DNA of 64,000 bases from a virus. Lineage: Duplodnaviria; Caudoviricetes. The position numbers were made by a program, and so were the translations under genes. The stretch covers positions 13,731 through 77,730 of IMG/VR virus record IMGVR_UViG_3300022899_000001, one strand, 5' to 3'. The notes beneath the pieces are model-generated. The model ran no database searches, had not been told where the DNA came from, and was given only the letters and a program-made list of their open reading frames with translations. Shown piece by piece: positions 7,502 to 39,400 of this stretch; position 1 is the first letter of the stretch; the number at the start of each line of letters is the position of its first letter.

Positions 7502-9199
7502 TCAGTAAGTGTAAGTCGAGGTCGTGCTAAGATAATCGGGCCGATCATTGTCGGACTCGTTGCTGTCGGGAATGGTGTTGGCCAGATTCCAGATGAGCAG
7601 GTTCGCTTCCGGGCAATCCACGATGTTCGTGTAGGTCAGGCCGCGCTGTTCGACTTCCCGCGTGGCGGTGTCCTCAACGCATTGATACGTCGGGTCAACC
7701 CGCTGCAAATCCTCCAGCTTGCCGCTGGTGGAAGTCTGCCGCGTGCTTTCCACAACGCCCATCGCGAGGCCGGTCATGTCGAGCAACCAAATGGCGCGAC
7801 CGCCCGCCGAAAGAGAGGAATCAGCTTCCTCGGTCGCATATTCCTGCCACATGGCGAGGTAGTCGTCCAAGCTGAAGTGAGTCATCACGTTCAAGGTGAT
7901 GCCGATGCCTTTGCCGACGAGCCGATAGCGTTTGAAATGGAAACCAAGATTGTCGCCTTCGGCCATCATGTTGATCTGAAGCGTGCTTTCGGAGTACGCC
8001 TTGAACAGTTTGATGAAGCCGCGATCAATGATGCCCGCCGTCTCGCGGTCGGTGAACAAATCGAACTGCGAAGCCGCCGATGAGCCGACGCCCGCCCGCA
8101 CACGCGAGAGGATGTAGATGGCGTCAATCAGACTCCACAAATCCAATGCGGCGCCTTGCGCGTCATAGACTCGGTTGCAACGCTGAAGGATTTCGATGAT
8201 GCCAAGCGCGTTGGCTTTGTAGCCGTCGCAGGTGCCGCCGGCATAGCCCAATCCGATTTCACCAATGAAGCGAGTCACTTGCGGAAGGCTGCGGTAATCG
8301 TTGACGTTCTGGTTCGCGCTGATGGGTTTGCCCCACAGGAAATTCTCGAACACCTTGTTCATCCACGCCTGAAGCTTCTGCGCGTTGGATTCGGCTTCCG
8401 ACTGCGCAAACAACTTCTTGTACATCGGATTGTTTTCCGTGATGGCCTTGCGCCATTCCCGGACGACGGACGAGTTGCACAAAGTCGTCTTGGTGTGCTC
8501 AATCCAGAACGGAACAAGGTTGGTATTGAGGTAACTCGGCTCCGCGTCGCAGTAAGCTTCGCTGCGGGCGATGTTCGCCGGGCCACGGGTCAACCGGCCT
8601 GTCGTCGGGTCCTCAACGTCGAAGGCAGAACCGTCATTCTGCGGCGTCAGGACGAGATCAATGGAGTTGCCATCGAGCGTGCTGGAAACCACCACGCCCT
8701 GCCAGAGATTGAGAGAACCACCAGCGGTCTTGCTCTTGATGAACACGCGCTCGCCAGCGGTGAAGCTCGCGGCGTTGGCCGGGATGCCACTGGTCGAAGT
8801 AACGGTGACGGCCCAATTCTCACCAGATGCCGTGCCGCCCGTGACCTTCCAGTAGTTGTTGTTGATCGGGCGCTTTTGCTCCGCGAGGATGAACGGCTTG
8901 ATCTTGCTCACCCCTTTGTAAAGCGAGTCGGGCTGGATGTTCTTGCGAACAGGCCGCAGGTTGGCCATGAAGAAATCGCGCAGCGGATGCTCCACCATGC
9001 CGCACGCCTTCAACTCCATCGAAGTCATCAGCATCGCCCCGAGTACACGATATTCCCCGTCGAGCTTGTAAATCGAGTCCAAGTCGGAGGCGGTTTCCGG
9101 CTTGGCGTTTACACAGAGGGATGTGGTTCCGCACGTCGCGATGTCGGAACGAATCGCCGGGGAACATTGCTTGTAGATGTCGGTCGTTGCGAATGCCAT
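7502..9199 (-). CDS. Major capsid protein (inferred HK97 fold with insertion domain)
   Basis: 565 aa, order portal-small-scaffold-this gene, followed by a strong terminator. Assignment is by synteny rather than motif. Confidence 0.7.
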   Translation of the reverse strand: MAFATTDIYKQCSPAIRSDIATCGTTSLCVNAKPETASDLDSIYKLDGEYRVLGAMLMTSMELKACGMVEHPLRDFFMANLRPVRKNIQPDSLYKGVSKIKPFILAEQKRPINNNYWKVTGGTASGENWAVTVTSTSGIPANAASFTAGERVFIKSKTAGGSLNLWQGVVVSSTLDGNSIDLVLTPQNDGSAFDVEDPTTGRLTRGPANIARSEAYCDAEPSYLNTNLVPFWIEHTKTTLCNSSVVREWRKAITENNPMYKKLFAQSEAESNAQKLQAWMNKVFENFLWGKPISANQNVNDYRSLPQVTRFIGEIGLGYAGGTCDGYKANALGIIEILQRCNRVYDAQGAALDLWSLIDAIYILSRVRAGVGSSAASQFDLFTDRETAGIIDRGFIKLFKAYSESTLQINMMAEGDNLGFHFKRYRLVGKGIGITLNVMTHFSLDDYLAMWQEYATEEADSSLSAGGRAIWLLDMTGLAMGVVESTRQTSTSGKLEDLQRVDPTYQCVEDTATREVEQRGLTYTNIVDCPEANLLIWNLANTIPDSNESDNDRPDYLSTTSTYTY

Positions 9200-23767: not shown

Positions 23768-24394
23768 CTACCTCGGCATCGTCAACCCCCGCTCCCCATC
23801 CGCCGCCCTGGTGAGTTTGGAAACAATTTCAGACCACGGTCTGCCTTCGCAACGGACACGCTTAATAAGGTCCGCGTTTACGCTGCCTGGAAAGCACCAC
23901 CAATCCTCAGTCTCGCCATAGTCAGGAATCACAACGTCGGCGCAGGCCAGATCGTAACCGTATTCCTTCATCGCCAATCGCATTCTGTCACGCGGCTCAT
24001 CACCAATCCTGTAACGATCATGCTCAATAGTCGCAACACTGAATCGTAATGTTCCAAACGGTATGTTACTGAACGTGTCGAGTGTCGCATCGTCACAGTC
24101 CAAACTCAAAAAGTCAATTATTCGAGGCAGACCAGCCTCATCAATTACCGCGAGCCAGTCCGTTTTGGTTGTGTCGCCCTGAATAAACTTGCTGGTGCGA
24201 TTCTGAATCCGATCTGCGTCACACAGAATGTCGAACAATAAACCGCTCCAACCCATTTGCTCAAGAGCGTATGTGTTGTTCATCGAGGTCAGGTTATACG
24301 AACCAACATCCAGAAATGTGCCATCAGTTCTCTGCCCGCACATTTCAAATGCGAATACATCCTGTCCCGCCTGTGATGTGGATTGAAGAATCAT
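23768..24394 (-). CDS. FkbM-like class I SAM methyltransferase
   Basis: SQAGQDVF...GTFLDVGS...NNTYALEQMGWSGLLFD...IDFLSLDCD. Confidence 0.75.
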   Translation of the reverse strand: MILQSTSQAGQDVFAFEMCGQRTDGTFLDVGSYNLTSMNNTYALEQMGWSGLLFDILCDADRIQNRTSKFIQGDTTKTDWLAVIDEAGLPRIIDFLSLDCDDATLDTFSNIPFGTLRFSVATIEHDRYRIGDEPRDRMRLAMKEYGYDLACADVVIPDYGETEDWWCFPGSVNADLIKRVRCEGRPWSEIVSKLTRAADGERGLTMPR

Positions 24395-25179
24395 GCACGA
24401 CTTCTTCGAGACGACGCATCATACATCGCCTGAGCCTTCTTCAAATCACGCGGCCCGTTTTCAATCTCGTGCATCTGGTGAAAGTATAAGTATTCTTCAA
24501 TTATGTGAAACTTCACTCCCGCCCGCTGCATGGCTCCCTGAAGATCAAGCTGCCAATAGCCCCATTCCAAAAGTTCTTCATCGTAAAAATCCGCTGCCGC
24601 CATTGCTTGTTTCGTCGTGATAAAACTGGCCGCATCATACAAGGCGCTCGTGTGCCAGCCCGCGCCTTCCGAGTTCTTCAGGAGGTTTTTTGGGTTTTCC
24701 CTCCAATTCAAACCTTCCAAATCAGAAGCGTGGTCAACTGCTTCGTGTGGTTTTCCTTTTTGCGACCAATAGGGCATCTGCATCAACCAGCTTGCAACAA
24801 ACCACATAGGGTCAGCGCCATCGTTAGACTGCTTGGAAAACTCACCGACCAGCCTCTCGCAGTAATCCACATCGTAAATACAATCTGCTTTTGCCAAAAT
24901 AAACACGTCATGCTTGGCCATTCTGATAGCTGTATTCTGGCACCAAGAAGCTGTTGTCTTGGCCGGATCACCGTGTTTATTAAACGAGAACCGAAGCTTG
25001 TCCACGTCGAAATGCTTGGCTATGACCCTTTTGATTTCACTCTCTGAATAATCAGTGTTGTTCTCGAAGAACAGCCAGCAATCAGGGGAGATGGTTTGCT
25101 TGGACAATGAGTAGAGGCTTCGCTCAAGATGGTCAAGCGTCAGACTTCTAAAGAATGTGAAAATCAAACTCCAAGTCAT
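24391..25179 (-). CDS. GT-A fold (GT2-like) glycosyltransferase
   Basis: N-terminal SLIFTFF...LERSLYSLSKQT; FILAKADCIYD (DxD-like); WGYWQLDLQ...HQMH. Confidence 0.65.
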   Translation of the reverse strand: MTWSLIFTFFRSLTLDHLERSLYSLSKQTISPDCWLFFENNTDYSESEIKRVIAKHFDVDKLRFSFNKHGDPAKTTASWCQNTAIRMAKHDVFILAKADCIYDVDYCERLVGEFSKQSNDGADPMWFVASWLMQMPYWSQKGKPHEAVDHASDLEGLNWRENPKNLLKNSEGAGWHTSALYDAASFITTKQAMAAADFYDEELLEWGYWQLDLQGAMQRAGVKFHIIEEYLYFHQMHEIENGPRDLKKAQAMYDASSRRSRA

Positions 25180-25925
25180 ATTTCTGCCCCTTTTCTCTTG
25201 TTGAATTGCTGTTTGAAATACGGATCAGTCAACGTGTCGGCGAAACCTGAAAGCACGCGCTTGGTTTTCATGTCTGCTTTTGAAAAATCTTCTGTCGGCC
25301 TCCAAAACGCGAGACAATTTGACTGGTCGCCGCGCCAGAAGCAATTTGGTGCCCTGCGCCATTCGCGCCATTGATACTCACCACTCCATAGCACCAGCTT
25401 GACTGGAAGCTTTTCCCGCGCAACCAAAACCCACAAACTGTTAGGGCCATGCTCGAATGCGTATCGGTCAGACTTGCTACTGACGCCGAATGGATAACGT
25501 CGCAAAATGTGTGGCGGGCAAAAGAATCCACTCGTGTTAAGATGTGGGCGAATCTGATAGCTGGCGCAGGTCCCGTAAAGACCTGGAGCTTCGGCGAACA
25601 CCTTGGCCATGCGCGAGAGCCAGCCGGGTTTGTTGAAATAAGCTGACGCACCAAAACACAAGATCATGTCGGCGTCACATTGCTTGGAATAATCCAAATA
25701 ACCACCGATGTCCCAGCCGTCGTTTGTGCGAGTGAAGAAACTACAATCTGCAATCTGGCTGAATTGTGCCTTCTGCCGGCTGTCCGGCTCCCGGCCATTA
25801 CAGATGATAACAGTTGAATGGTGTTCACCGGGCGGATGCGAAAGGTAGGAACTGATAAAACGCGAGTGCGCGGACTGAAACTGCGCAAGATGAGGAACCA
25901 TGATGTAGGCGAGCATGATCTTCAT
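25176..25925 (-). CDS. Putative glycosyltransferase-like protein
   Basis: FFTRTNDGWDIGGY...ILCFGASAYF...HLNTSGFF...YAFEHG; lies within the GT cluster. Confidence 0.5.
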   Translation of the reverse strand: MKIMLAYIMVPHLAQFQSAHSRFISSYLSHPPGEHHSTVIICNGREPDSRQKAQFSQIADCSFFTRTNDGWDIGGYLDYSKQCDADMILCFGASAYFNKPGWLSRMAKVFAEAPGLYGTCASYQIRPHLNTSGFFCPPHILRRYPFGVSSKSDRYAFEHGPNSLWVLVAREKLPVKLVLWSGEYQWREWRRAPNCFWRGDQSNCLAFWRPTEDFSKADMKTKRVLSGFADTLTDPYFKQQFNKRKGAEI

Positions 25926-26596
25926 GCAGGCACTCGCCTTCCAAAGTACATCGGAAATCTCCTAGCCACTTCATGGAAATTGCGCTGCTCAATCGCATTG
26001 ATGCCGGGCATCTTCGAGCTTGTGGCCTTGCCGATGTGGGTCACGCGGCAGTCTGGAGTAACGTGAAGGGTGTAGCCTTTTTCTATCAGACGAAGACCAA
26101 GGTCTATCTCCTCCCAGTAACAAAACTTCAAGTAATCACTGAACAATCCAACCTCTTTCAACAATTCCGTTCGCCCCATCATGCAATGTCCCCATAGATA
26201 TTCGATTGCGGATTTATCAGGGTTGAGGCTTTTTCGGAAATGACCACCCACCGGCGAGGACAACGCGCACATCTGAAACTCCTTGAACGGACGCTCCAAA
26301 GCCTCAAGCCAGCCAGAATCAACAGTCGTGTCGTCATTGAGGTAAATCACAAAATGCGAAGTTATCTTGGTCAATGCAACTCGTGATGGATTGATGAATC
26401 CCTCGTTCTTTTGATTTATTACCACCGTGACGTTGGGATGATCGCGAGCCAGGCCAAGGAAATAATTCCCAACTACCGGATTACCGTTGCTGGTCAGGCA
26501 TAATTCAAAGTCGGAACTGTGTGCAAATACGGACTCCAGGCATCTCTTACAGTGATCCAGAGCCGTGTATGTCGTTATACAGATGCCGTAACGCAT
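25922..26596 (-). CDS. GT2 family glycosyltransferase
   Basis: ICITTY...CLESV...NEGF...IYLNDDTTV...EEIDLGLRL..KGY. Confidence 0.85.
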   Translation of the reverse strand: MRYGICITTYTALDHCKRCLESVFAHSSDFELCLTSNGNPVVGNYFLGLARDHPNVTVVINQKNEGFINPSRVALTKITSHFVIYLNDDTTVDSGWLEALERPFKEFQMCALSSPVGGHFRKSLNPDKSAIEYLWGHCMMGRTELLKEVGLFSDYLKFCYWEEIDLGLRLIEKGYTLHVTPDCRVTHIGKATSSKMPGINAIEQRNFHEVARRFPMYFGRRVPA

Positions 26597-26963: not shown

Positions 26964-26993
26964 TGCTAACCCGTCGCATAATCACTGTTAGCA
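26964..26993 (+). other. attI-like site 1
   Basis: AATCACT-GTTAGCA opens array 1 without an attC left arm; 9/10 identical to the site beside the integrase remnant. Confidence 0.55.
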
Positions 26994-27223
26994 GGCTCTC
27001 CGTTTTTGGCGTCGTAGTATTTGTCCCACGCTTTCGAGGTCTGGTCGCACAGGTCATCGTATGCCAGTTGAGCATCTTGAGCTTGCTGTCGTGCTTCGTT
27101 TCGTAGTGATTGGAGTTTTTTGCAGTTCGCAAGTAGCCTGCTAACAAGCTCACTGGAGCGAACCGGCTTGGGCTGCTTCAGTGAGGTTATCAGGGCGTAG
27201 TTGGACGGTTTGATTCGGCTCAT
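26966..27223 (-). CDS. Cassette ORF, small coiled hypothetical protein
   Basis: 85 aa; ATG inside attC 27139-27271; ends ANSDYATG across the attI-like site. Confidence 0.6.
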   Translation of the reverse strand: MSRIKPSNYALITSLKQPKPVRSSELVSRLLANCKKLQSLRNEARQQAQDAQLAYDDLCDQTSKAWDKYYDAKNGEPANSDYATG

Positions 27224-27271
27224 AGGTCTTGTTGCATTTCGCCAGCGGGTCGCTCAGTTCGGTCGTTAGGC
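27139..27271 (+). other. attC-type site (133 bp)
   Basis: TGCTAAC-AAGCTC-ACTGGAGCGAACCGGC ... GCGGGTCGCTCAGT-TCGGTC-GTTAGGC. Confidence 0.85.
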
Positions 27272-27272
27272 G

Positions 27273-27881
27273 TCATAGGAACGCGCCTTGCAAGTTCGGA
27301 CGCTTTCGTTCCGCAAGGCATATTGTGTCGTTGTGGGCCGCGCCGTGGCAGACGAGCATCACTTCGAGGATGTCGCAGCCGTGCTTCTGCCCCATTCCGG
27401 CGCTGTTCCATCCGAAGCTCAGGACGATGGCATCGTCGGTCAGCACTTCGGCCATTGCGTTTTTTACGCGAGAGTAGAGCGCGGCGTTTTGCGTTTCCTT
27501 CATGCCGCACTTGATTCCGGCTTCCTGGTAGCACTCGCTGATTTGGCGCGGCGAGTATGGCGGGTCGAGGATTGCGAGGTCGCACCGGATTCCTTTGCCC
27601 GCGAGCATCCGCAGAAAGTCCTCGGCATCCATGTGATATTCCGCCTCTGTCTTTGGGTTCAGGTCGTTGGTGTAGGTTGCCCATCGTTTGTTGCGTGCGA
27701 ACGGGTCGCACGAGATTTTCGCGGCTTTGAGATAGCGTTGCACCATGTCACCTATTGGCCGGACGCTGAAGGTGTCAGCAGACGGCATTGCCCACACGCG
27801 GGAGAATGACGCCGAACCATACGGTGCAGCGAATGCCGCCATCGCATCTCCGGCGAGTTCGTGAGTCTCAGTGGGCGGCAT
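27273..27881 (-). CDS. Cassette ORF: small adenine-type DNA methyltransferase-like protein
   Basis: ISCDPFARN...LAILDPPYSPRQISECY; true start may be a few codons downstream. Confidence 0.7.
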   Translation of the reverse strand: MPPTETHELAGDAMAAFAAPYGSASFSRVWAMPSADTFSVRPIGDMVQRYLKAAKISCDPFARNKRWATYTNDLNPKTEAEYHMDAEDFLRMLAGKGIRCDLAILDPPYSPRQISECYQEAGIKCGMKETQNAALYSRVKNAMAEVLTDDAIVLSFGWNSAGMGQKHGCDILEVMLVCHGAAHNDTICLAERKRPNLQGAFL

Positions 27882-27904
27882 CGCTGACCTTATCGTCGTT
27901 GGGC
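27811..27904 (+). other. attC-type site (94 bp)
   Basis: GCCGAAC-CATAC-GGTGCAGCGAATGCCGCC ... GGCGGCATCGCTGACC-TTATCGTC-GTTGGGC; the arms differ only by the extra G and A. Confidence 0.9.
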
Positions 27905-28131
27905 CGACGCCAGTGGGTAGCGATCTTATCTACCTTTGCCCACTTTGGCCGATACATTGGCCGGCCATCGTAGAATCTCAGAACGGTTTGGACACTGCCC
28001 CACCACACTTCACCGCTCACGAGTTTAGTGCCAATTTGTATTCGGTCGCCCGGCCCAACCACCGGATGCTGCGAACGTGCGGTTCGCTTTCGGCATCCGG
28101 CTTTGGGAGAAATTGGACGTTTATTTTTCAT
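27868..28131 (-). CDS. Cassette ORF, small basic hypothetical protein
   Basis: 87 aa; starts in attC 28053-28160 and ends PNDDKVSDAAH in attC 27811-27904. Confidence 0.55.
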   Translation of the reverse strand: MKNKRPISPKAGCRKRTARSQHPVVGPGDRIQIGTKLVSGEVWWGSVQTVLRFYDGRPMYRPKWAKVDKIATHWRRPNDDKVSDAAH

Positions 28132-28160
28132 CGGCAGGTCGCTGATCCGGGACGTTCCCC
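28053..28160 (+). other. attC-type site (108 bp)
   Basis: GCCCAAC-CACC-GGATGCTGCGAAC ... GGTCGCTGATCC-GGGAC-GTTCCCC. Confidence 0.85.
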
Positions 28161-28885
28161 ACCTTGAGCACGCGCAGGATTTGCCGTGCGAGATATTCCG
28201 CGAAGGCCGGTGGTATGGCTTGCGCGATTTCTTTTCGAGTCGCCCACGGCATCTGCATGATTTCGCGGGCTTCTTCGAGTCCCTTTGGCTTGCGTCCGAG
28301 TCCGCCAGTTTTCTTTTTACGAGGCGCGTGTTGGAAGCTGCCAGTTCCGCTCACGTCTATCGGGTCAGGTTGTGCGGCGTGGTTGCATTCCGGCGCAGTC
28401 AGCAGGACGTTGCTCTCGAAGATGCGATGCCGGCGCACCCGAAGCCCGAAGGACGAGCCACAGAGCATCACCGGATTTTGCAGCGGCGCACCGACCACGT
28501 TTTCGATGATGTAGAGTCCTCCCCACGCCTTGAGCTTTTCGCGTGTGCGTTCGATGTAGCACTCGTATTCTTTGCCGGTCACATGCTTTAGAGTTGTGTG
28601 CGCCTGGCACGGCGGCGAGGCCCACACGAAATCGAAGCCGGACAGGTCAGCATCCAGCGCATTTCCGATGTGACGCTTGAAGGGATAGTTCAGGCCGCTC
28701 TTGATGTCCCATCCTTCCACCTCGAATCCGGCGTTGTGGATTCCCATGCCCGCACCGCCGGCGCAGCAGAATAAGTCAGCACATCGCGGGGCAGGTGGGG
28801 AACAAGACGCTGCACGCAAAGATGCCCCGCTTCGCAGTTCGAGCGGTTGCATCTTCGGCGGCGCGTCTGTCAGTTCGATAGTCAT
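28121..28885 (-). CDS. Cassette ORF: C5-cytosine DNA methyltransferase (short phage type)
   Basis: DLFCCAGG (I), WASPPCQ (IV), IIENV (VI), RRHRIFE (VIII), IAQAIPPAF (X). Confidence 0.85.
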   Translation of the reverse strand: MTIELTDAPPKMQPLELRSGASLRAASCSPPAPRCADLFCCAGGAGMGIHNAGFEVEGWDIKSGLNYPFKRHIGNALDADLSGFDFVWASPPCQAHTTLKHVTGKEYECYIERTREKLKAWGGLYIIENVVGAPLQNPVMLCGSSFGLRVRRHRIFESNVLLTAPECNHAAQPDPIDVSGTGSFQHAPRKKKTGGLGRKPKGLEEAREIMQMPWATRKEIAQAIPPAFAEYLARQILRVLKVGNVPDQRPADEK

Positions 28886-28931
28886 TTGGCGTTATTGAGG
28901 CGGGGCATCTTGCGTGAGCTTTTCGTTGGGC
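28797..28931 (+). other. attC-type site (135 bp)
   Basis: GGGGAAC-AAGAC-GCTGCACGCAAAGATGCCCCGC ... GCGGGGCATCTTGCGTGAGC-TTTTC-GTTGGGC. Confidence 0.9.
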
Positions 28932-29596
28932 CACTTAGCGCACGTCGCTGCCAGTTCGAGCAGATAGTGCGCGAACGCGGGAGGCGTGGCGTTTGCCTCA
29001 CGCTTTGAGAGTGTCGGTTTATTGGCGGCCTTGCCGCGCTGGTCGTGGAAGCCGACTTGATGCGTCCCGATTGGTCGCGCCCATCGAGGGTGTAGCGGAG
29101 ATTGAGTGCCTGAGCAGTAGAGCCATGTTCGTTTGTTCGCTCGATGCCCGTAGGCCGATTGCCAGACTTCGCACACCCATCCTTGCTTCCATCGCGTCCA
29201 TCCGATTCCAGGATACGGCAGCCCGTGCGCCGTCCATGCGTAGGTTTCCGCAGGATGTTCGAGCACGCCGCCGCAGCGGTTCACAGTGTCGAGCGCAAAT
29301 TGGAAGCAGCCGCCATCATTGCCGGGTCGGTTGTGTTCTCCGCCCCACCGCAGATGATTTATCACCGCCATCTTGCCCCACAGTTGGCAGGGAGGATGAG
29401 CGACCACGGGATTGTTGCCCGCGTAGGTCAGCGCGTTTCGTTCGGCGTCGTAGCAGTCACAGCCGAGCGACTTGTAGAGAGAGTCTTTCATCACGAAAAG
29501 CACAGTGACGTGGCCCAACCAATCAGTGCAGCGAACAGCCGCCCCGCTCTCCGGTTCGGCGTTCACTGGAATTAGAATGTCGGCGGTGTCGTTCAC
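28892..29596 (-). CDS. Cassette ORF: divergent C5 DNA methyltransferase-like phage protein
   Basis: VVAHPPCQLW (PC motif), GGVLEHP, HRANKRTWLY, ANATPPAFA. Confidence 0.6.
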   Translation of the reverse strand: MNDTADILIPVNAEPESGAAVRCTDWLGHVTVLFVMKDSLYKSLGCDCYDAERNALTYAGNNPVVAHPPCQLWGKMAVINHLRWGGEHNRPGNDGGCFQFALDTVNRCGGVLEHPAETYAWTAHGLPYPGIGWTRWKQGWVCEVWQSAYGHRANKRTWLYCSGTQSPLHPRWARPIGTHQVGFHDQRGKAANKPTLSKREANATPPAFAHYLLELAATCAKWPNEKLTQDAPPQ

Positions 29597-29635
29597 GGTT
29601 TCTCTCGGAGGCTGTCGCTGACTTCTGCGTTCTAC
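29513..29635 (+). other. attC-type site (123 bp)
   Basis: GCCCAAC-CAATC-AGTGCAGCGAACAGCC ... GGCTGTCGCTGACT-TCTGC-GTTCTAC. Confidence 0.9.
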
Positions 29636-29922
29636 GGCACCGGCATGACGCCTTTGCTTTTAAGAAAACGGCGGTTGATCTCTTTCGGCCAGTCAGCGGG
29701 CCAGTCGGTTGGGTCGCCTTTGGAGTCCATCAGCACCCACCCTTCGGCATCCCGATACGCAGAGGCCGGTGACGTAGAACCAGCCGGATGCAGCGAACCG
29801 GGCTTCGCCGGTTCGCCATCACGCTTTTTTGAACGGCGCTGCTTTGCCTTCTGTTCACGCAGCCAGTTTCTTGTTGCCGAGTCCTCCGGCCACACTCTTG
29901 GTTTCGCCATGCCCATTGCCAT
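29632..29922 (-). CDS. Cassette ORF, small hypothetical protein
   Basis: 96 aa; starts inside attC 29774-29973; its TAG is part of the next site's R' box. Confidence 0.55.
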   Translation of the reverse strand: MAMGMAKPRVWPEDSATRNWLREQKAKQRRSKKRDGEPAKPGSLHPAGSTSPASAYRDAEGWVLMDSKGDPTDWPADWPKEINRRFLKSKGVMPVP

Positions 29923-29973
29923 ATTCAGATTTCTTTCTTGTTTTCGCCCGGTCGCTGATCCGGGACGTTCTCT
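29774..29973 (+). other. attC-type site (200 bp)
   Basis: GTAGAAC-CAGCC-GGATGCAGCGAACCGGGC ... GCCCGGTCGCTGATCC-GGGAC-GTTCTCT; 21 bp (29950-29970) identical to 28137-28157. Confidence 0.9.
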
Positions 29974-30245
29974 GTCGGCTGTCGCTTACTCTCGTGCCCC
30001 ATCTGCCGGCGGAAGCGGCCTTTGTAGTGCATCGGCACGCCTCCAAAGTGGTTGATAATATAGACGGTGTTTTCGTCCACTGATTTCCATTTGCACGGAT
30101 GCGAGTAGTGGTAGAATTGGTCACCTTTTCGGATTCGCTCCTTGAGTCTCAGCACACGAAATTGGCTAACCACGCGCTGAAGACGACTGCGAGAGCGTCG
30201 GGTAGCACTGGCCGTCTTTCCGCGTTGGAGCTTTTTTGTTTTCAT
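29925..30245 (-). CDS. Cassette-like ORF, small basic hypothetical protein
   Basis: 106 aa; ends ENVPDQRPGENKKEI inside an attC. Confidence 0.55.
   Translation of the reverse strand: MKTKKLQRGKTASATRRSRSRLQRVVSQFRVLRLKERIRKGDQFYHYSHPCKWKSVDENTVYIINHFGGVPMHYKGRFRRQMGHESKRQPTENVPDQRPGENKKEI
30164..30190 (+). other. attC left half-site
   Basis: GGCTAAC-CACGC-GCTGAAGACGACTG with no convincing right arm. Confidence 0.45.
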
Positions 30246-30637
30246 CGCCGCTGCGCCTTGTAGTGTTCCAATATCTTGTCATACTCCGCATCGCCCACTG
30301 GAATGACCTGTCCTTTGAACGGTTCTGGCATATCCTCGCCGCTGAACCATGCGAACCGAGTCCCTTCCACAGTAGTAATGGCGCACCAACCCAAGTCCAA
30401 GTTCTTCTGGCACGTCGGGCAATACGGCTTGTGCTTTGGCTCGACTATCTTCGCTTCGACTCGCTTGGCAAACGGAGCGCCATATCTCTTTCCGCACAAC
30501 GCGCAGGGTATCGCAGCGGATGGCAGCTTGCCGTTGCGCTTGGCCCGATTCTCCATCATGCGGTCGCCATACTGCTTCTTTAACGAAGGCAGCAGCGCGG
30601 AGAGACGCTTCAGTCGGTCGAGGAAGTTGTCGCTCAT
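30242..30637 (-). CDS. Hypothetical protein with two CxxC motifs
   Basis: PCALCG...YCPTCQ; 131 aa. Confidence 0.6.
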   Translation of the reverse strand: MSDNFLDRLKRLSALLPSLKKQYGDRMMENRAKRNGKLPSAAIPCALCGKRYGAPFAKRVEAKIVEPKHKPYCPTCQKNLDLGWCAITTVEGTRFAWFSGEDMPEPFKGQVIPVGDAEYDKILEHYKAQRR

Positions 30638-30642
30638 AACAA

Positions 30643-31182
30643 TCAGCCATCTAGCGGGCTTTTGATGCGCCGCTCGACCGGAGCGGCGACATGAATGTGC
30701 TTTGCATGTCCCGGAAGTGACCCGAATTCACCATGAAGAAGGCGTGATGCGAAAGCATACGCGACGGCAGCGTCCCTCTCGGTATCGAAATGGCCTATTG
30801 GAATCATTTTGTAGTTATACCTAATTCGCGCTCTGAATTTATTCTTGTCCTTTGAGACTCCGCGCACCCCGTATTTGCCCCATGCCAAGTGAAGATTTCG
30901 GCTGTTTTCTCCTTGGGTGCATAGCCTTAAATTCTCCCGGCGATTGTCCAGCCCGTCTCCATTGATGTGGTCAACTTGCTTGTGTGATGATCCATTTATG
31001 CCAAGCATGAATCGGTGCATGGTGACTTCGATCCGCTTTCCGTTTACCGTCGGTCGCCGTGCAGCATAAAGCAGCTTTCCGCCATGACATTGTTTCAAAC
31101 TCCATTTGAACTTTGACAACTTATCGAAGTCCGAATCATCAACGATGGCGTGTTTTCCAGCACTAAGAGGGATTGTTTTCAT
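30643..31182 (-). CDS. HNH homing endonuclease with AP2 DNA-binding domain
   Basis: MHRFML...VDHINGDGLDNRRENLR...N; GVRGVS...FRARIRYN...IGHFDTERDAAVAY. Confidence 0.9.
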   Translation of the reverse strand: MKTIPLSAGKHAIVDDSDFDKLSKFKWSLKQCHGGKLLYAARRPTVNGKRIEVTMHRFMLGINGSSHKQVDHINGDGLDNRRENLRLCTQGENSRNLHLAWGKYGVRGVSKDKNKFRARIRYNYKMIPIGHFDTERDAAVAYAFASRLLHGEFGSLPGHAKHIHVAAPVERRIKSPLDG

Positions 31183-31353
31183 TTAGTTGCTAGTGTGCCG
31201 CAGCGTGTGACATGCTGTCAAACTGTAATCGAGCAAACGCTTGACGTAACAATCCACCGTGCGCGGCGAGTAATGCTTGGTGACCAGCCAGCGGCGGAAC
31301 ACCTCACGTGGCTTGAGTGAATCAGCTTTACGCGGTTCAATTACGGCTGTCAT
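31183..31353 (-). pseudogene. intI: Integron-integrase (tyrosine recombinase) remnant, 56 aa
   Basis: My translation: MTAVIEPRKADSLKPREVFRRWLVTKHYSPRTVDCYVKRLLDYSLTACHTLRHTSN*. It joins an IntI-type N-terminal HYSxRTxxxY helix directly to the box II CHTLRH motif. Confidence 0.75.
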
Positions 31354-31643
31354 GGCTTTGAGTCGTTGGAATAACTGTTCTGACGCTTGGAATCAGCAGC
31401 TTCAATCTCTTTTGAGAAGGCGACCATTGCGTTGACCACCTCAGTCTTGTGGGCAAGTGGCACTTCAGGTTGGTAGCACAGAAGGTCTGTTATTTCCTTC
31501 ATCCACGCTTCAAGCCTCTGGACGGCAGGTCGCGTCAGAACCATGCGGTGCAGCGAATGAGCTTCCGCCTGTTCCGCTTCTCGCAGGCTTCGCTCTGTAG
31601 CGCAGTCTAGGCACAGACAATCTTCTTCGTGTTTATCGCTCAT
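31350..31643 (-). CDS. Cassette ORF (first of array 2), hypothetical protein
   Basis: ATG at 31643 lies in the L' arm of the attC; ends QNSYSNDSKP; its TGA overlaps the intI ATG. Confidence 0.6.
   Translation of the reverse strand: MSDKHEEDCLCLDCATERSLREAEQAEAHSLHRMVLTRPAVQRLEAWMKEITDLLCYQPEVPLAHKTEVVNAMVAFSKEIEAADSKRQNSYSNDSKP
31365..31383 (+). other. attI-like site 2
   Basis: AATAACT-GTTCTGA, about 24 bp upstream of the intI ATG and on the opposite strand, as in canonical integrons. Confidence 0.65.
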
Positions 31644-31664
31644 CGCTGACCTTTTTCGTTCTAC
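31535..31664 (+). other. attC-type site (130 bp)
   Basis: TCAGAAC-CATGC-GGTGCAGCGAATGAGC ... GCTCATCGCTGACC-TTTTTC-GTTCTAC. Confidence 0.9.
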
Positions 31665-31915
31665 AGCACCCGCTCGCTGTGTTTTATTTCGACGCATCTG
31701 ATTTCGGGGGGCACTAGCAAGTCCCTAAAGAACCATCTGGCATATTCCAGCGCCTGTGATTTGTTGTCCCGCTGGCCGGGGATCCGTTCCCATTTGGCCT
31801 TCTTTGTTTTCCATTCGACCGCGTATGCTGTAGAACCACGGCATGGAGCAGAACTGCCCTTGCGCTTTGCAGTTTTCAAGCGTGCTGGTTTGCGGGAGTT
31901 GGTTTTCGTTTTCAT
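31661..31915 (-). CDS. Cassette ORF, small basic hypothetical protein
   Basis: 84 aa, bounded by attC sites. Confidence 0.55.
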   Translation of the reverse strand: MKTKTNSRKPARLKTAKRKGSSAPCRGSTAYAVEWKTKKAKWERIPGQRDNKSQALEYARWFFRDLLVPPEIRCVEIKHSERVL

Positions 31916-31960
31916 ATTTTCGGGCTGTCGGCGGGCAGTCGCTCATCGCCGACGTTCTGC
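31830..31960 (+). other. attC-type site (131 bp)
   Basis: GTAGAAC-CACGGCATGGAGCAGAACTGCCC ... GGGCAGTCGCTCATCGCCGAC-GTTCTGC. Confidence 0.8.
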
Positions 31961-32274
31961 CGCCTGCGTTTCAGTCCTTCGAGCCGCTTCTGGAGAGCCG
32001 TTAGGTCGCGCTCCGATTCAGCGATTGCCTTGGCGAAGGCTTCGTCCCGCGTCTCGAAAAGATGATGTCCTTCCGCGCCGGAGAATCCGACTTCTGGACA
32101 CCACCACATTGTTGGGTTGCTTGGAGCGCATGAGTAGCCAGTGACTTCGCGCACGTCACCATCTGCCACGGCCCACCATTGGCGTTTCTCGCGTTCGACT
32201 GCGGCAGAACCACCGGGTCGAGCTAACCCGGCGGGCCGATCTGGTTGTTGGATGTTGGTTTGCATGGATTTCAC
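31912..32274 (-). CDS. Cassette ORF, hypothetical protein
   Basis: 120 aa; ends QNVGDERLPADSPKI inside an attC. Confidence 0.6.
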   Translation of the reverse strand: MKSMQTNIQQPDRPAGLARPGGSAAVEREKRQWWAVADGDVREVTGYSCAPSNPTMWWCPEVGFSGAEGHHLFETRDEAFAKAIAESERDLTALQKRLEGLKRRRQNVGDERLPADSPKI

Positions 32275-32316
32275 GTTTGGGTTTTCGCGCCGGGTAGCTC
32301 ACCCGGAGCGTTCTGC
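32204..32316 (+). other. attC-type site (113 bp)
   Basis: GCAGAAC-CACC-GGGTCGAGCTAACCCGGCG ... CGCCGGGTAGCTCACCC-GGAGC-GTTCTGC. Confidence 0.9.
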
Positions 32317-32579
32317 CAATGTTCCTCGCATCGAACCTTGGCCTCTTTGACCGTGGCGTAATCACCGATAGTCCAGGATCGTCTATAGGCCGTTCCAGAG
32401 GAGACGTGCGCTTGGACTTTGGCTCTGTATTGCGTCACGAAATAGCGAAACCCAGCCGACGCAGCCCACGTCCACATATTTACTCCATTCGCCTGACTGT
32501 AATGCCAAATGGCAGAACCAACCGGATGGAGCAGACCCGGTTGGGCGTATTGAGTTTTTTCTTGAGGTTCAGGTTTCAT
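32271..32579 (-). CDS. Cassette ORF, hypothetical protein
   Basis: 102 aa; ends QNAPGELPGAKTQT inside an attC. Confidence 0.6.
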   Translation of the reverse strand: MKPEPQEKTQYAQPGLLHPVGSAIWHYSQANGVNMWTWAASAGFRYFVTQYRAKVQAHVSSGTAYRRSWTIGDYATVKEAKVRCEEHWQNAPGELPGAKTQT

Positions 32580-32619
32580 AAAGTCTCAGTTCCGGGGCTG
32601 CTCATCCGGGACGTTAGCC
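32512..32619 (+). other. attC-type site (108 bp)
   Basis: GCAGAAC-CAACC-GGATGGAGCAGACCCGG ... CCGGGGCTGCTCATCC-GGGAC-GTTAGCC. Confidence 0.9.
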
Positions 32620-32778
32620 AGCATTGAACGATGCGCACACCACACATTGTTTCGCGCCTTCCGTCGCCTCACCAAGATACTCCGCTTTTACCTGTTCGAC
32701 CGATGAGCACCACGCCGAGTATTTATCTCGCCACCCTTGGTGTGGTCCTTCGTTATTCGCTGGCCGCATTCTGCACAT
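32614..32778 (-). CDS. Possible 54-aa cassette ORF
   Basis: MCRMRPANNEG...QCVVCASFNAG*; the stop TAA lies in the R' box. Confidence 0.35.
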   Translation of the reverse strand: MCRMRPANNEGPHQGWRDKYSAWCSSVEQVKAEYLGEATEGAKQCVVCASFNAG

Positions 32779-32797
32779 CTCATAGTTAGTTGTTTTT

Positions 32798-32828
32798 CAT
32801 CGGTGCTGCTTTAACTCAGTCGTTCTGC
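32798..32828 (+). other. attC right half-site
   Basis: CATCGGTGCTGCTTTAACT-CAGTC-GTTCTGC; a 49-aa ORF (32816-32965, minus) ends QND* across it. Confidence 0.4.
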
Positions 32829-33088
32829 GTCTTCGCCTCGTCCAGTTGCGGAGCGCGGCATTGTGGGCCGCACGACAGGTCTTCGATGACCTGTTCCGTG
32901 GCTTCCTCTGGCAGTTCGTCCAGAAAGATTCTCACGCCTTTGTAGCGCACGAGGCGCACGCTCATCGCTCAGCTTGGTCGTAAGATTCAAAACCAATGCT
33001 CCGCCCGCTACAGTCACTCTGGTGAGGAATGATGGTCTTGCGACCAACGGAGCACTGGAAACTTGATCGTGACTGTAGCATGGAGGAG

Positions 33089-36489: not shown

Positions 36490-39400
36490 ATGCCTTTCTC
36501 GGATACCGATGAACTGGTTTACGACACACCGAAGTCCTCTTTCTCGGAATCCGACGCACCTGTAGAACCACCTCCGCAAGCAATTCCTGCTGACAATCAA
36601 GGCGGCTACCTTACCGAAGTCGCACGCGGCCTGACGCAGTTTGTTCCTGCGGCAATCAAAACGATTTCCACTGTTGGTGAACGTCAAAAGTTTACTCCAT
36701 TCGGTCCAACTGCCCGCGAAGTTGCTGACTACGCCTTGCGGAAGGTTGGTGTTGAACCCGCGCCCGGAGAACTTCCTGAGACTCGTCCAATCTACAAGAT
36801 TGGCCAGCGTGTCGAGGATGTTTTGAACCAAGCCTACCCCGCTGTGCCTGAACCAGAGCGCAATCTTGGACACGACGTTGCAGCCGGACTTGGCCAGATG
36901 GCTTCCATGTTGGCAGGCGGTGTTGGAGCGCGGGCCGCTGGCGCAACCGCTAAAGGCGCGGCAGGTATCGCAACATTGCTTGGCGGTGTTCAAGAGTTCG
37001 ATGATGCTTTTGGCCGCTCACGACAGCGCGGCGATGATCCTGACACCGCGTTTGCCAAGTCACTTGGCTATTCCACCGTCGCGGCTTTGATCGAAAACCA
37101 TCTTGGTGCCGGACGCATTCTCAAGAAGTATTTCCCTGATCCTGCCGAAGCCGCCCGCAAGCTGAGTGCGTGGGGAGTCAGTAAAGCTGTGGCTGGCTCA
37201 CTCGCTGTCGGTTTTGGCGAGGAAGGCTCACAACGATTCGCGCAGAACTGGATTGTCGAAGGCAAGCCGTCATTGGAAGGTGTCGTTCAGGAAGGCGCAC
37301 CGGGCGGCATAGTTCAGGCGATAGCGGAACTGCCAGCGACTTTGTTGAGAACAAAAGGCGGTCGAGTGCGCCGTCCAACACAAGCACAACCTACGGAGGA
37401 AACAGATGCCACAAGAACTGGAATCCCAATTGAAGCGCCGGGCACGCAAGCTCCACCTGTCGAAGAAGCGGACAGGGGCATACGTGTACGGGACACTGCG
37501 CAAAACCGGATGGGAGCCCCAGCCATCCTCGCACCGCCGCAAGCAGAAGCGCCTGTCGTCGCGACGACGCCGGTAGCGCCGCTGGCTCTGCCTTCCGTCG
37601 GGGAATCAATTGAACATCCTGTCGTTGGCCAGAAGTTTATAGTTCCACGCCAACTGCGGCTGGCAGATGCTCCGGTTGATACCGAAGTGACCGTGGAGAG
37701 CGTGAAGCGTGGCCCTGACACAAGAGGGGGTAGTCAGACTATCGAAGTTAGATTTTCAGACGGAAATACCAGTGGGAGAAACGCCGGCCAACAATCCGAC
37801 GGAACATTTGTTCCTGTTGATGACATCGTTAATCAGATTCTTTCCGAGCGGAAAGCCAGACCATCTCCTGCGCCGGTCGCCCCTGCGGTTGTTCCGCCAG
37901 TCGTCCTACCCAAGATCGCCCCCGTCGTTTTCAAATCACTCGACCCGATGAATCCGTCCATCGGCTGGTTTGAATTGACCGAGCCGTTCACAGCGCCAGA
38001 AACAGGACGCACGACGGCAGCAGGCGGACGGCTCAACTCGAATCAAATCGAACAATACGGCATGTCGCTGGAAGGGCCTGCTAAGGCAGCGTTCGAGGAA
38101 GCGAAGAAACGAACTTCAGTTAGCAATGCACCCAAGGAACCGAGTGTGGCGGCGGGAGACCAACTAACACCCGTTAGTGAGGGAACAACTCCCGCCGCTG
38201 CTCCTGTAAATGTTCCAACCCCAATCGCAAATGTTCCAACCCCTGCGCCCGTTGCAGCGAAGCCTGCCGAGACTCTCCCGCAAGGGAAAGCTTGGTCTGT
38301 GCCTTGGGCTGATGGTCGGGCGCGTGCATGGTTTAAGACGAAAGAAGCAGCAGACGAATTCTATCGCCAGAAACTTTCAGAGAACGATGTTGATGGTCCT
38401 CCAGAAATTGGTGAACCAACCAAAGGAGTTAAATATGCCGACGAAAAGTATCAAATTCCGAAGGCTGCCAAGGGCTCAAGTGAATCGAATATTAAAGCAG
38501 ACGATTTGGCTGGAGTATTGGGAGAGGGTGCAGGAGGCGGCGCGGCCAGAACTGAAGGCCCTATTGCGATCTCACCAACTACGCCCACGGTGTGGAAGGT
38601 AAGCTATACAGATTTGGAAACCCGTGCTGCCAAGCGCCCATTCTTCAAGCATGTCGTCTATTCAGAAGGTGCGACTCGTCAGGAAGCCATAGACAGAGTT
38701 AAATCTTATCACGGAAATCTTTCAAAGTGGGGAGAGTTTAGAGCCTCAAAAGCTGAAGGTAAAAAGGCTGATTCGTTCTTCCGTGCTCCAGTTGAAGAAA
38801 CCCCCGGCCCAGCGAGCGATGTTTCACCGAAACAGAGCGCCCAAGCTGAGGCGGGACAGTCAATCGTTCAAACTCCAAGTGTTGCGCCGGTTGAGCAGAC
38901 AGTCAAGCTCGTGGCTGATGTTGGGGATGAAGTTACATTCACGCCTTCTGCAAAGAAGGGATTGGCTGTTTCTGGAATCGTTCAGGAAATTGTGAACGGT
39001 GGGCGTGGCTACAACATTCTTTCGCCGCTTCCGAATGATCCAAACCGCGTTGTTCGCGTTTGGCTTGAAGATGGAAGGGTTGAGAAGAAAGCTGCGCCTG
39101 ATACTGCGTCCTTGTTGACGGTTGATGTTCCATTCACCGATGATGCCCGCCGCCGAATAAAAGCTGTTGACCTTCAGCAAGCGCAGTTGCGTGGCGAATA
39201 CCAAAAGATTCAGGACGAGATAAAGTCACTCGAAAAGACCATCAAGCCTCAACGTGGTAATGCTTACTCACGGAGTAAGATCAAGGCGAGCGCAAAACGA
39301 TTAGATGTAGAGCGTTTCCATGCGCTCCAGAAGCAGGCTCGAACGATTGACGAGCAGCTTCATGCTTTGGACGAATCGGCACGAGTGGACAGAAGGCTGA

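Follow-up and report, generated by a model that had tools for sequence, protein, structure and literature searches.

Several described systems share features with the phage locus analysed here. Canonical integrons, both class 1 mobile and sedentary chromosomal, have attC sites whose R'' arm carries two extrahelical bases spaced six pairs apart, together with an unpaired spacer and AAC/GTT boxes. They leave a G/TT crossover footprint, attI adjoins intI at its 5' end, the attC top strand is directed away from intI and IntI belongs to TIGR02249. All of this is shared by the phage locus and its relatives. Unlike in canonical integrons, the phage cassette genes run in the direction of intI and antisense to attC. 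Their start codons and leaders of 23-29 residues come from within attC, and the crossover has a standardised frame. The phage sites also differ in their length (86-204 nt) and in the proximal unpaired base on the top strand, which is G in 34/41 sites where class 1 attCs have C, and the locus itself has a dead intI and two arrays. Transcription of the phage genes would come from a distal phage promoter and proceed towards intI, which would leave any cassette inserted at attI in a promoter-distal place. In the 'inverted-integrase' integrons of the Treponema denticola type, intI is flipped and the array lies downstream with ordinary gene-then-attC cassettes. There as here the cassette genes share their direction of transcription with intI, but here the geometry of intI, attI and attC is canonical and only the genes are reversed. 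Individual antisense cassettes, e.g. toxin-antitoxin ones, exist in bacterial arrays as a minority with their own promoters. In the phage all are reversed and tiled as an operon, with starts in attC and no promoter recognised for the cassette genes. PeSL (promoter-early stem-loop) cassettes of T4-type phages are promoter-plus-hairpin units without a dedicated recombinase or attC anatomy, proposed to shuffle small accessory genes in the plastic early region. Our locus likewise has short structured repeats that flank small accessory genes in the plastic early region of a phage genome, but these are bona fide attC sites linked to IntI.

Phage-borne integrons and CALINs have already been published (Qi, Rajabal, Ghaly, Tetu, Gillings 2023, PMC9892861). 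That paper describes captured integron fragments in Vibrio and Shewanella phages, and attC clusters without a working integrase in phages that do not look temperate. The phage attCs fit bacterial-type models and recombined with IntI1, each CALIN had 2 to few attCs, complete integrons were captured host fragments and cassettes were oriented as in bacteria. The attC clusters and DNA methyltransferase cassettes are common to both studies. The present locus has ten sites plus relics, along with an intI remnant, and its sister phage contigs encode intact IntI and have as many as 12 cassettes. Qi et al. 2023 do not mention antisense genes, attC-internal starts or a phage-linked IntI clade. A previous sequence-only reading of our locus knew of no description of a compact antisense phage integron and called for a literature check. 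Phage integrons as such are not new. What appears undescribed is the antisense design with starts embedded in attC, together with the phage-linked IntI clade.

The window, meaning the whole 64-kb stretch of DNA that was analysed, comes from a CheckV-complete 77.7-kb phage genome (G000) that encodes tail and virion genes. Its locus is confirmed to hold ten genuine attC sites and a wrecked intI (Table 1). Array B consists of attC 1-6, and array A of attC 7-10 and two decayed half-sites.

Table 1. Features of the locus in window coordinates; a slash marks the crossover point.
Feature	Coordinates	Strand	Details
Left end of array B, with attI-like core	26964-26993	+	AATCACTG/TTAGCA; G at 26987
attC 1	27139-27271	+	133 nt; R1 83 bits, R2 59.7 bits
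Cassette 1	26988-27265		278 bp; closed by attC 1
Cassette 1 gene, 85 aa	26966-27223	-	start codon 48 nt inside R' end of attC 1
attC 2	27811-27904	+	94 nt; R1 69 bits
Cassette 2	27266-27898		633 bp
Cassette 2 gene, DPPY-type DNA methyltransferase	27273-27881	-	phrog_11619 E 6e-34
attC 3	28053-28160	+	108 nt; R1 76 bits
Cassette 3	27899-28154		256 bp
Cassette 3 gene, 87 aa	27868-28131	-	
attC 4	28797-28931	+	135 nt; R1 52 bits
Cassette 4	28155-28925		771 bp
Cassette 4 gene, C5-cytosine-type DNA methyltransferase	28121-28885	-	phrog_363 E 6e-24
attC 5	29513-29635	+	123 nt; R1 76 bits
Cassette 5	28926-29629		704 bp
Cassette 5 gene, phrog_12600 protein	28892-29596	-	phrog_12600 E 1e-60
attC 6	29774-29973	+	200 nt; R1 93 bits
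Cassette 6	29630-29967		338 bp
Cassette 6 gene, 96 aa	29632-29922	-	TAG stop within attC 5 R' box
Two genes, 106 aa and 131 aa	29925-30637	-	between array B and intI remnant
HNH endonuclease gene, 179 aa	30643-31182	-	Pfam HNH_3 E 2e-8, phrog_99 E 6e-32
intI remnant, 56-aa ORF	31183-31353	-	tblastn
attI_A core	31368-31383	+	GGAATAACTG/TTCTGA; G at 31377; 23 nt upstream of intI-remnant start
attC 7	31535-31664	+	130 nt; R1 84.5 bits
Cassette 7	31378-31658		281 bp
Cassette 7 gene	31350-31643 or 31350-31697	-	stop overlaps intI-remnant start
attC 8	31830-31960	+	131 nt; R1 84.6 bits
Cassette 8	31659-31954		296 bp
Cassette 8 gene, 84 aa	31661-31915	-	
attC 9	32204-32316	+	113 nt; R1 94 bits
Cassette 9	31955-32310		356 bp
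Cassette 9 gene, 120 aa	31912-32274	-	
attC 10	32512-32619	+	108 nt; R1 86 bits
Cassette 10	32311-32613		303 bp
Cassette 10 gene, 102 aa	32271-32579	-	
Decayed distal end of array A	32790-32990	+	two L'-R' half-sites

All ten sites are structured on the plus strand. Each begins with xxxxAAC, a 2-4 nt spacer and an L'' arm whose unpaired bases, a G and an A, lie six pairs apart, followed by a variable centre, the L' arm, a spacer and GTTxxxx. The sequence-only reading had recognised this attC anatomy, and the covariance search it proposed agrees. Model R1, trained on the window's ten sites only, and model R2 recover all ten at 45-94 bits. The next best matches in the window reach only 14-15 bits, and there are none in the rest of the 77.7-kb genome. 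In a set of 42 sites drawn from 9 sources, 89% of cells are paired (65% in shuffles). The covariation score of 0.51 compares with 0.14 in shuffles and 0.05-0.08 with the pairs slid. Folded as minus-strand DNA, attC 9 has a z of -4.3, and its 3' arm shows T and G bulges. R1 also retrieves the class 1 integron sites attC_aacA4, attC_catB8 and attC_aadA1 on the ORF strand (28-37 bits), and their two bulges align with those of the window sites. In bacterial intI loci it retrieves 35 attCs, every one upstream of intI on the opposite strand, without a false positive across 838 kb. Over 41 nt, an attC from a sister phage shares 90-93% identity with catB8/aadA-type attCs present in 4,971 plasmids. The attC motif occupies varying reading frames from gene to gene, which identifies it as a nucleic-acid element rather than a protein motif. 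The ten sites behave as attC in every computational test run, and the sequence-only interpretation of them is supported.

Every cassette gene reads on the minus strand, in the direction of intI and antisense to the attC top strand, and extends through the sites as that reading had it; the cassette sizes it gave (256-771 bp) also match our measurement. Read on this strand, the region yields two DNA methyltransferases, the phrog_12600 protein, the HNH gene and the intI remnant. Antisense coding is backed by PHROG matches, ORF tiling and the phage's own codon usage, on which 15/15 plus-strand ORFs are negative and most minus-strand ORFs score like control genes. The start codon lies within attC in 10/10 window sites (56/61 overall), behind weak Shine-Dalgarno motifs. 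The reading frame is standardised at the R' crossover, where AAC is an in-frame Asn codon in 45/57 sites (P = 2e-12).

The boxes of neighbouring sites also carry information. Among neighbouring pairs, the outer 4 nt of one R' are complementary to those of the following R'' in 7 of 9 cases in the window (P = 3e-9) and in 32 of 52 across the phage arrays (P = 6e-33), against 3.7% among non-neighbour sites. The two boxes of a single attC match in only 4/63 cases. We argue from these sequences that the complementarity of neighbours is the footprint of G/TT crossovers. The R'' of attC 3 (GCCCAAC) complements the R' of attC 2 (GTTGGGC), and the R'' of attC 4 (GGGGAAC) the R' of attC 3 (GTTCCCC). The pairing holds between attC 5 and attC 6 (GTTCTAC/GTAGAAC) and at attC 8, 9 and 10 with their respective preceding sites. 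It fails between attC 6 and attC 7. The R'' of attC 7 (TCAGAAC) complements the junction TTCTGA of attI_A. An identical attI core is found at an identical offset in contigs L028 and L012, and L029 and L031 have a similar one. This conserved core, (G)AA(T/G)(A/C)ACTG/TT, is 15-23 nt upstream of intI, and the variable 4 nt that follow its GTT complement the R'' of the first attC in 5/5 testable loci. The attI-like core of array B is preceded by an inverted TGCTAAC box and has no intI next to it. It matches the attI core of L012, whose IntI is intact, at 12/13 positions, and its TTAGCA complements the outer bases of attC 1 R'' (TGCTAAC).

The canonical att polarity claimed earlier is true of attC 7-10, which are placed canonically relative to the intI remnant. 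AttC 1-6 lie downstream of the remnant and start from the second attI-like core (26978-26993); no intact relative has attCs downstream of intI in this way. Since array B is downstream of intI and has its own attI-like core, the locus is two tandem integron relics rather than the single integron first proposed. The only close relatives of G000 that were found are 100% identical across the array, which therefore shows no variation.

The dead intI spans 30643-31353 and has a big internal deletion and an in-frame HNH endonuclease insertion. In its 56-aa ORF, residues 6-43 of the IntI N-terminus are followed immediately by residues ~261-284 from the box II region; the deletion removes ~220 residues, catalytic R and K included. 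The final ~37 residues of the HNH gene are the IntI C-terminus (30649-30759), where tblastn places IntI residues 283-330 in frame at 46% identity (30759-30649). The region around the catalytic tyrosine is absent. No recombinase gene is encoded in G000, and the array sequence is the same in at least 5 samples.

We argue that the region is very probably the remains of a phage-adapted integron lineage, with two tandem attI-anchored arrays that flank a destroyed intI. It is worth considering passive capture of a bacterial chromosomal integron piece, where the antisense layout would record the direction of pick-up and not phage adaptation. Temperate phages are known to take up host integron fragments (Qi et al. 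2023, PMC9892861), and the intI of G000 is dead and its array static across samples. However, at least 12 unrelated viral contigs, direct-terminal-repeat genomes among them, repeat the antisense layout with starts in attC, and attC arrays are present in direct-terminal-repeat genomes of 78 kb and 204 kb. L012 has an intact IntI homologue (356 bits on TIGR02249, cut-off 265), and L027, L028 and L029 have further intact copies, each with arrays of up to 12 attCs. These four IntIs fall together on one side of a 100% SH-aLRT branch in a quick, midpoint-rooted tree with the 79 closest bacterial sequences only, which suggests that the phage-linked proteins form their own clade. None of the bacterial IntIs among 185,579 species representatives is >51% identical to them. 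The bacterial arrays found with R1 are mostly sense-oriented, the sense ORF being longer in 18/23 cassettes by a crude measure, and the standardised frame at R' points to long co-evolution of gene and site. Passive capture is therefore very unlikely.

In the phage-adapted lineage reading, intI was destroyed by the ~220-residue deletion and the in-frame HNH insertion. The footprints suggest past cassette assembly by ordinary IntI chemistry, in which a folded bottom-strand attC would have recombined with attI or another attC by a crossover at G/TT in R'. The mobility of the cassettes is read from these footprints in the sequence. With each gene antisense to its own attC, the attC comes first in the gene's sense, and the start codon and first ~25 codons sit in the attC loop and the L''/R'' arm. 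Since the genes are antisense with starts embedded in attC, they would not be read from the Pc promoter at attI. They would probably belong to a single leftward phage operon with its start near 33.1-33.3 kb, read in the direction of intI. Cassette ends have a standardised frame, in which AA/C at the crossover gives an Asn codon or the box a TAA/TAG stop, so a gene could read a short tail from the following attC and terminate near the next start codon. Termination there may melt the hairpin and couple translation, a presumed mechanism for a frame bias that is itself observed. The cargo, which includes two DNA methyltransferases, would fit exchangeable anti-restriction and host-takeover genes. 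The system in G000 is presumably frozen for want of a recombinase, its array being identical across those samples, and could be mobilised in trans only.

An even less probable scenario is recombination of the other strand with the crossover in R''. The cassettes would then be minus-strand gene-then-attC units, and each attC would donate a start codon and a leader peptide to the cassette after it. Unrelated proteins do share the attC-encoded 23-29-residue leader and diverge exactly after R''; the attC 2 type and its leader peptide precede unrelated proteins in L012, L020 and L023. The PHROG homology of the cargo begins at residues 27-36, and R'/next-R'' pairing alone fits either model. However, unrelated genes with shared attCs are nothing unusual in bacterial integrons either (e.g. 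aadA1 and catB8). In attI the constant part extends only as far as G, and it is the variable TTxxxx that pairs with the R'' of the first attC, so only an R' crossover fits. The frame is fixed at R' but random at R'' (23, 22 and 16 occurrences), which means R'' shuffling would break two thirds of the fusions. Homologous attCs retain the outer bases of R'' and vary those of R'. The site-2-type attC has R'' GCCG in 4/4 copies and a different R' in all four. The unpaired bases are on the same arm as in the aadA1 attC too.

The least probable scenario, that the hairpins are RNA-level or REP-like elements (translational operators, processing sites, terminators) that resemble attC by convergence and never recombined, suits a start codon enclosed by each hairpin in the mRNA sense, where translational regulation is possible, and the lack of a recombinase in G000, but it leaves unexplained the neighbour box-end complementarity, the junctions at attI, the presence of an intI remnant within the array and of intact IntI next to sister arrays, and the retrieval of canonical attCs without false positives in 838 kb. 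An RNA role on top of recombination could still exist.

Some smaller features of the integron remains must be noted. Between arrays only attCs are shared, and cassette bodies rarely are at the DNA level. The attI-proximal cassette of L012 is a 39%-identical homologue of the cassette 5 phrog_12600 protein. The 106-aa and 131-aa genes between array B and the intI remnant are outside any recognisable cassette, and a weak model match (11 bits) lies in this interval at 30164-30244. The R' box of attC 10 contains the TAA stop of the next gene (32614-32778). The decayed end of array A beyond it gives no full model match at 32790-32990 and was identified from the direct-repeat families D1 and D3 and inspection of the sequence. 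One half-site (~32790-32826) ends in GTTCTGC, and in the other (~32955-32990) GTT is mutated to GTA.

We argue that the ten plus-strand sites of the window are attC sites. Four independent lines lead there: what a covariance model built from the sites retrieves elsewhere, the pairing of boxes between neighbouring sites, covariation in the stem, and the identity of one sister phage attC to those of class 1 integrons. All ten share one plus-strand layout: first a box with AAC at its end, then a spacer of 2-4 nt, an arm, a variable centre of 40-150 nt, the complementary arm, a spacer and an invariant CGTT. The L'' arm of each site carries an unpaired G and then an unpaired A six pairs on. All ten window sites keep AAC and GTT unchanged, as do 41 of 42 sites across the family, and many relatives have the textbook GTTAGGC/GCCTAAC boxes. 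Folded as DNA, the minus strands give the expected hairpins, with two bulges of one base each on the 3' arm, separated by six pairs. In an alignment these bulge columns coincide with those of attC_aadA1 and attC_catB8. The proximal unpaired base of the top strand is G in 34 of 41 sites, whereas it is C in class 1 attCs. The attC anatomy that a sequence-only reading had proposed for these sites holds in structure, in model scores and along all four lines.

Two covariance models were used, one from the ten window sites only and a broader one from 42 sites. Both recover all ten at 45-94 bits, and neither finds a further site above 15 bits in the window or the whole 77.7-kb genome. When the broader model was used to look for extra or degenerate full sites there were none; the best candidates are an 11-bit match and two half-site relics to the right of site 10. 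The 11-bit match begins with GGCTAAC, the exact complement of the outer bases of the site 10 R' box about 2.4 kb away, and its position is the one predicted for an attC at the head of the 106-aa gene. We may be seeing a decayed site here, and with it the trace of a rearrangement. Rfam at the gathering threshold has no match in the window, which is uninformative for attC. On a class 1 integron the ten-site model finds exactly the three attCs (aacA4, catB8 and aadA1). Each match immediately follows a gene's stop codon on that gene's strand, and its bulges align with the extrahelical positions known for attC. Run over 838 kb surrounding bacterial intI genes, the same model finds 35 sites, and all 35 are upstream of intI on the opposite strand. 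Across 42 sites from nine sources, 89% of stem cells are paired versus 65% in shuffles; the covariation score is 0.51 versus 0.14 shuffled and about 0.06 with the pairs slid, on an alignment fitted to the model, which favours structure, although the margin is large. One attC of the sister phage contig L028 matches catB8/catB10/aadA-type attCs at 90-93% identity along 41 nt, its R''-L'' arm; those attCs occur in class 1 integrons on 4,971 plasmids (e.g. NC_021728.1). This suggests, from sequence identity, a pool of attCs or cassettes shared between these phages and clinical mobile integrons.

Coordinates of features in the window and in related records
Feature	Record	Positions	Strand	Remark
ORF of >1419 aa	window	1-4257	-	very large
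Leftward genes	window	~20.6-33.3 kb	-	every gene leftward, tightly tiled
Four-gene run	window	23768-26596	-	immediately downstream of the cassette array, same operon
Glycosyltransferase family 2 match	window	24391-25179	-	gene of the four-gene run
Glycosyltransferase family 2 match	window	25922-26596	-	gene of the four-gene run
Second attI-like core, AATCACTG|TTAGCA	window	26978-26993		pairs with site 1
attC site 1	window	27139-27271	+	first site of the left array
attC of shared-leader type	window	27811-27904	+
attC of shared-leader type	L012 (sister contig)	2907-2999
attC of shared-leader type	L020 (sister contig)	8693-8784
attC of shared-leader type	L023 (sister contig)	8056-8147
Weak match, broader model	window	30164-30244		11 bits
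Weak match, extent beginning GGCTAAC	window	30164-30271	+	possible decayed site
HNH endonuclease ORF	window	30643-31182	-	C-terminus is IntI residues 283-330
56-aa ORF	window	31183-31353	-	IntI residues 6-43 fused to ~261-284
HNH ORF and IntI remnant together	window	30643-31353	-
attC site 10	window	32512-32619	+	last complete site
End of right array	window	~32990
Divergent region	window	near 33.1-33.3 kb		putative start of leftward transcription
ORF of 2841 aa	window	36490-45015	+	very large
attC akin to class 1 attCs	L028 (sister contig)	8790-8895	-
Class 1 attC match	L032 (plasmid record)	3001-3041
phrog_12600 gene, Ralstonia phage PQ43W	L120	9001-9409		= PP405626.1 23375-23783
Borderline PF00589-like stretch	phage genome G005 (as L019)	19648-20157		26.9 bits

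The boxes record where cassettes were joined. The outer 4 nt of R' complement the outer 4 nt of the next site's R'' in 7 of 9 neighbouring window pairs (P 3e-9). Across the phage arrays this holds for 32 of 52 pairs, versus 3.7% for non-neighbours, and within single sites the two boxes match each other in only 4 of 63. We take this to be the classic footprint of cassettes joined at G|TT. Because attC is nearly palindromic, neighbour pairing by itself fits a crossover at R' or at R'' equally. The junction at the putative attI tells the two apart. A core (G)AA(T/G)(A/C)ACTG lies exactly 23 nt upstream of the intI start in the window and in two sister contigs, L028 and L012; in L029 and L031 it recurs at about that distance. 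It is followed by TT and four variable bases, and these complement the outer R'' bases of the first attC at 5 of 5 loci. This means that the constant platform ends at G and the cassette starts at TT, as it does in bacterial integrons. A platform ending at G also makes the plus strand of the window the attC top strand. The footprints argue that cassettes were joined by IntI-type recombination at G|TT, both at attI and between attCs.

Reading frames lead to the same place. Read in gene sense, the R' box places its AAC in frame with the incoming ORF, as an Asn codon, at 45 of 57 sites (P 2e-12), and at most of the others T-AA|C serves as a TAA stop. At R'' the three frames are spread (23, 22 and 16). 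Cassette ends are thus frame-standardised at the crossover and nowhere else, which again places the crossover at R'. A crossover at R'' would give canonical units of a gene followed by its attC, with donated leaders. Neighbour pairing would permit that scenario, but we reject it on the attI junctions and the frame statistics. With the crossover at R' and the frame standardised, a gene that lacks a stop of its own takes a short tail from whichever attC comes next (e.g. N-V-P-D-Q-R-P...) and ends within a few bases of the next start. Stop and next start are within about 15 nt at 6 of 10 window junctions. A protein-level repeat, as the recurring tail NVPDQRP might indicate, is ruled out because the motif lies in differing reading frames among the genes and partly in intergenic DNA, which makes it a nucleic-acid element.

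The second attI-like core in the window pairs with site 1 and has no intI alongside it, and between sites 6 and 7 the boxes do not pair. We therefore read the locus as two relics in tandem. The left one consists of this core and sites 1-6; the right one has the dead intI, its putative attI, sites 7-10 and two decayed half-sites. The sequence-only reading had described a single integron with canonical att orientation. The intI remnant stands, and so does the att polarity for sites 7-10, but the single array does not.

Integrons are the textbook bacterial gene-capture device, and multidrug resistance cassettes travel mainly in them. As a rule they have a promoterless gene and then its attC, with the gene read from Pc at attI. 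We argue that all cassette genes here are antisense to the attC top strand. The PHROG matches (two DNA methyltransferases, phrog_12600 and HNH) are on minus-strand products, and the intI remnant reads on the minus strand too. Under a codon usage model from the phage's long genes, 15 of 15 plus-strand ORFs are negative while most minus-strand ORFs look like control genes. Neither plus-strand coding potential nor a Pc promoter at the platform driving sense-oriented promoterless cassettes was found. All ten window attCs hold the start codon of the downstream gene, 21-51 nt inside the R' end, and from there the gene continues through L'' and R'' into the cassette body. The earlier claim that every cassette ORF is on the opposite strand, co-directional with intI, and runs through the att sites is thus borne out. 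Sister arrays behave alike, with an in-frame start inside attC for 56 of 61 outgoing ORFs overall, and the PHROG homology of the L028 cargo starts at residues 27-36, just beyond attC. In bacterial arrays found with the same model the sense ORF is the longer one in 18 of 23 cassettes; a longest-ORF comparison is noisy in GC-rich DNA, so this is a crude contrast only.

Unrelated proteins from different contigs have in common a leader of 23-29 residues that attC encodes, and their similarity ends exactly after R''. One attC type found in the window, L012, L020 and L023 encodes a nearly identical N-terminal leader of 24-27 residues, MTPQETSEL..DAMASLAA..GSA, and the four protein bodies fused behind it are unrelated. 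L010 and L012, and likewise L010 and L028, show this for other attC types. In bacterial integrons unrelated cassettes share attC types (aadA1, catB8), and the shared leader of the phages is the mirror image of this. A leader shared by unrelated bodies is relevant to the way cassettes arise.

Searching with a 16-mer of the conserved arm brought up further viral contigs that have same-strand arrays of these attCs. In L012 a 331-residue protein adjoining the array passes the 265-bit cut-off of NCBIfam TIGR02249 (integron integrase) with 356 bits. With this protein as probe the IntI segments of the window fall in two adjacent ORFs, and the remnant that had been claimed is indeed there. In one, the HNH endonuclease gene continues in frame into the last ~37 IntI residues; in the other, the IntI N-terminus is joined directly to box II. 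Of the catalytic residues, R and K are missing, and so is the region surrounding the tyrosine. We argue that the window intI was gutted by deletion and insertion of the HNH gene; the damage looks like invasion by a homing-type endonuclease plus deletion. A functional integron integrase was not found in the window, which holds a remnant only, and a profile search of the whole 77.7-kb genome found no tyrosine recombinase domain (PF00589).

Intact homologues of the L012 IntI, 53-76% identical, are present in L027, L028 and L029, and L030 and L031 have similar remnants, C-terminal or N-terminal. In all five of these contigs the attCs are upstream of intI with the top strand directed away from it; L028 has 12 attCs and L031 has 9. 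Among the bacterial IntIs of 185,579 species representatives, the closest one reaches 51% identity. In a quick maximum likelihood tree, rooted at the midpoint and including only the closest bacterial sequences, the four phage IntIs are together on one side of a long branch (SH-aLRT 100%).

The 77,730-bp IMG/VR record, of which the window is bases 13731-77730, is rated complete by CheckV and encodes tail and virion proteins. The attC locus is the upstream end of a leftward operon, with glycosyltransferase genes downstream of it. With ten attCs and intI in fragments, the window in its present state formally counts as one CALIN or as two. At least five samples yielded assemblies of this phage (JGI 3300015201; ENA ERZ27228478 and ERZ27228465; SRR6956476; SRR7967860). 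Each contig is 100% identical over its 3-12.6 kb overlap with the window; three of the five overlap the array, and two of those cover it entirely. Identical copies are silent on cassette shuffling. The sequence-only reading had proposed a look in related phage contigs for the same cassettes in another order, and the searches gave none: beyond these copies, a protein search gave one 33%-identical relative whose locus has no array. The flanking 449-aa protein has no relatives in viral_contigs or metagenome_contigs. Since the recombinase is absent and the assemblies are identical across the array, the system is frozen in this phage. The window is a fossil copy of it.

The way such an array works would be as follows. 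Transcription would run leftward, towards intI, from the divergent region, the array being one part of the phage operon; scans for consensus promoters and terminators found no more than shuffled sequence would give. In the mRNA the attC hairpin would enclose each start codon. Ribosomes ending the upstream gene inside the 5' arm would open the hairpin, so that translation is coupled. A cassette inserted at attI would be promoter-distal, the reverse of the bacterial rule.

Taken together, we lean slightly towards an integron lineage kept by phages, with a dedicated IntI clade and a rebuilt cassette grammar, that swaps anti-defence and host-takeover genes and exchanges them with bacterial mobile integrons. 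The attC before each gene would double as a portable translation-initiation and leader module. Frame standardisation at AA|C would let any cassette precede any other with translational coupling kept, and the whole array, intI last, would be driven by a phage early promoter. The phage attCs may be near enough to those of class 1 integrons (judging by the one L028 arm) for cassette exchange. If this is true the recombination grammar and the expression grammar of integrons are separable, and phages own a dedicated means of shuffling accessory genes, anti-restriction genes among them. The unsolved problem of cassette origin would be touched as well, since one attC-encoded leader is joined in frame to unrelated genes. 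Though a fossil, this phage is a well-preserved example in a complete genome with unusually clear anatomy.

It must be noted that integrons in phages are already in print. In a screen of 10,705 phage genomes, Qi et al. 2023 (PMC9892861) found 17 CALINs and three complete integrons that the phages had captured. Their CALINs have few attCs each and include methyltransferase cassettes, and they showed recombination of phage attCs with IntI1. However, antisense cassettes, starts inside attC, frame standardisation and a phage-linked IntI clade are not described there, and a full-text literature search found no other paper on them. The compact antisense version, of which the sequence-only reading knew no description, thus appears to be undescribed, whereas phage integrons and CALINs as such are known.

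A blastn search of INPHARED gave a single match, 70% identical, to the phrog_12600 gene of Ralstonia phage PQ43W, with no attC there. This gene thus also exists outside a cassette context. The PQ43W copy lies in an unannotated gap after a helicase gene. The two glycosyltransferase family 2 matches in the window are from two genes scanned at the upstream end of the four-gene run. The window also has two very large ORFs, and the one scanned, of 2841 aa, has no PHROG match. An unrelated 78-kb phage, G005, has a 3315-aa ORF with a borderline PF00589-like stretch.
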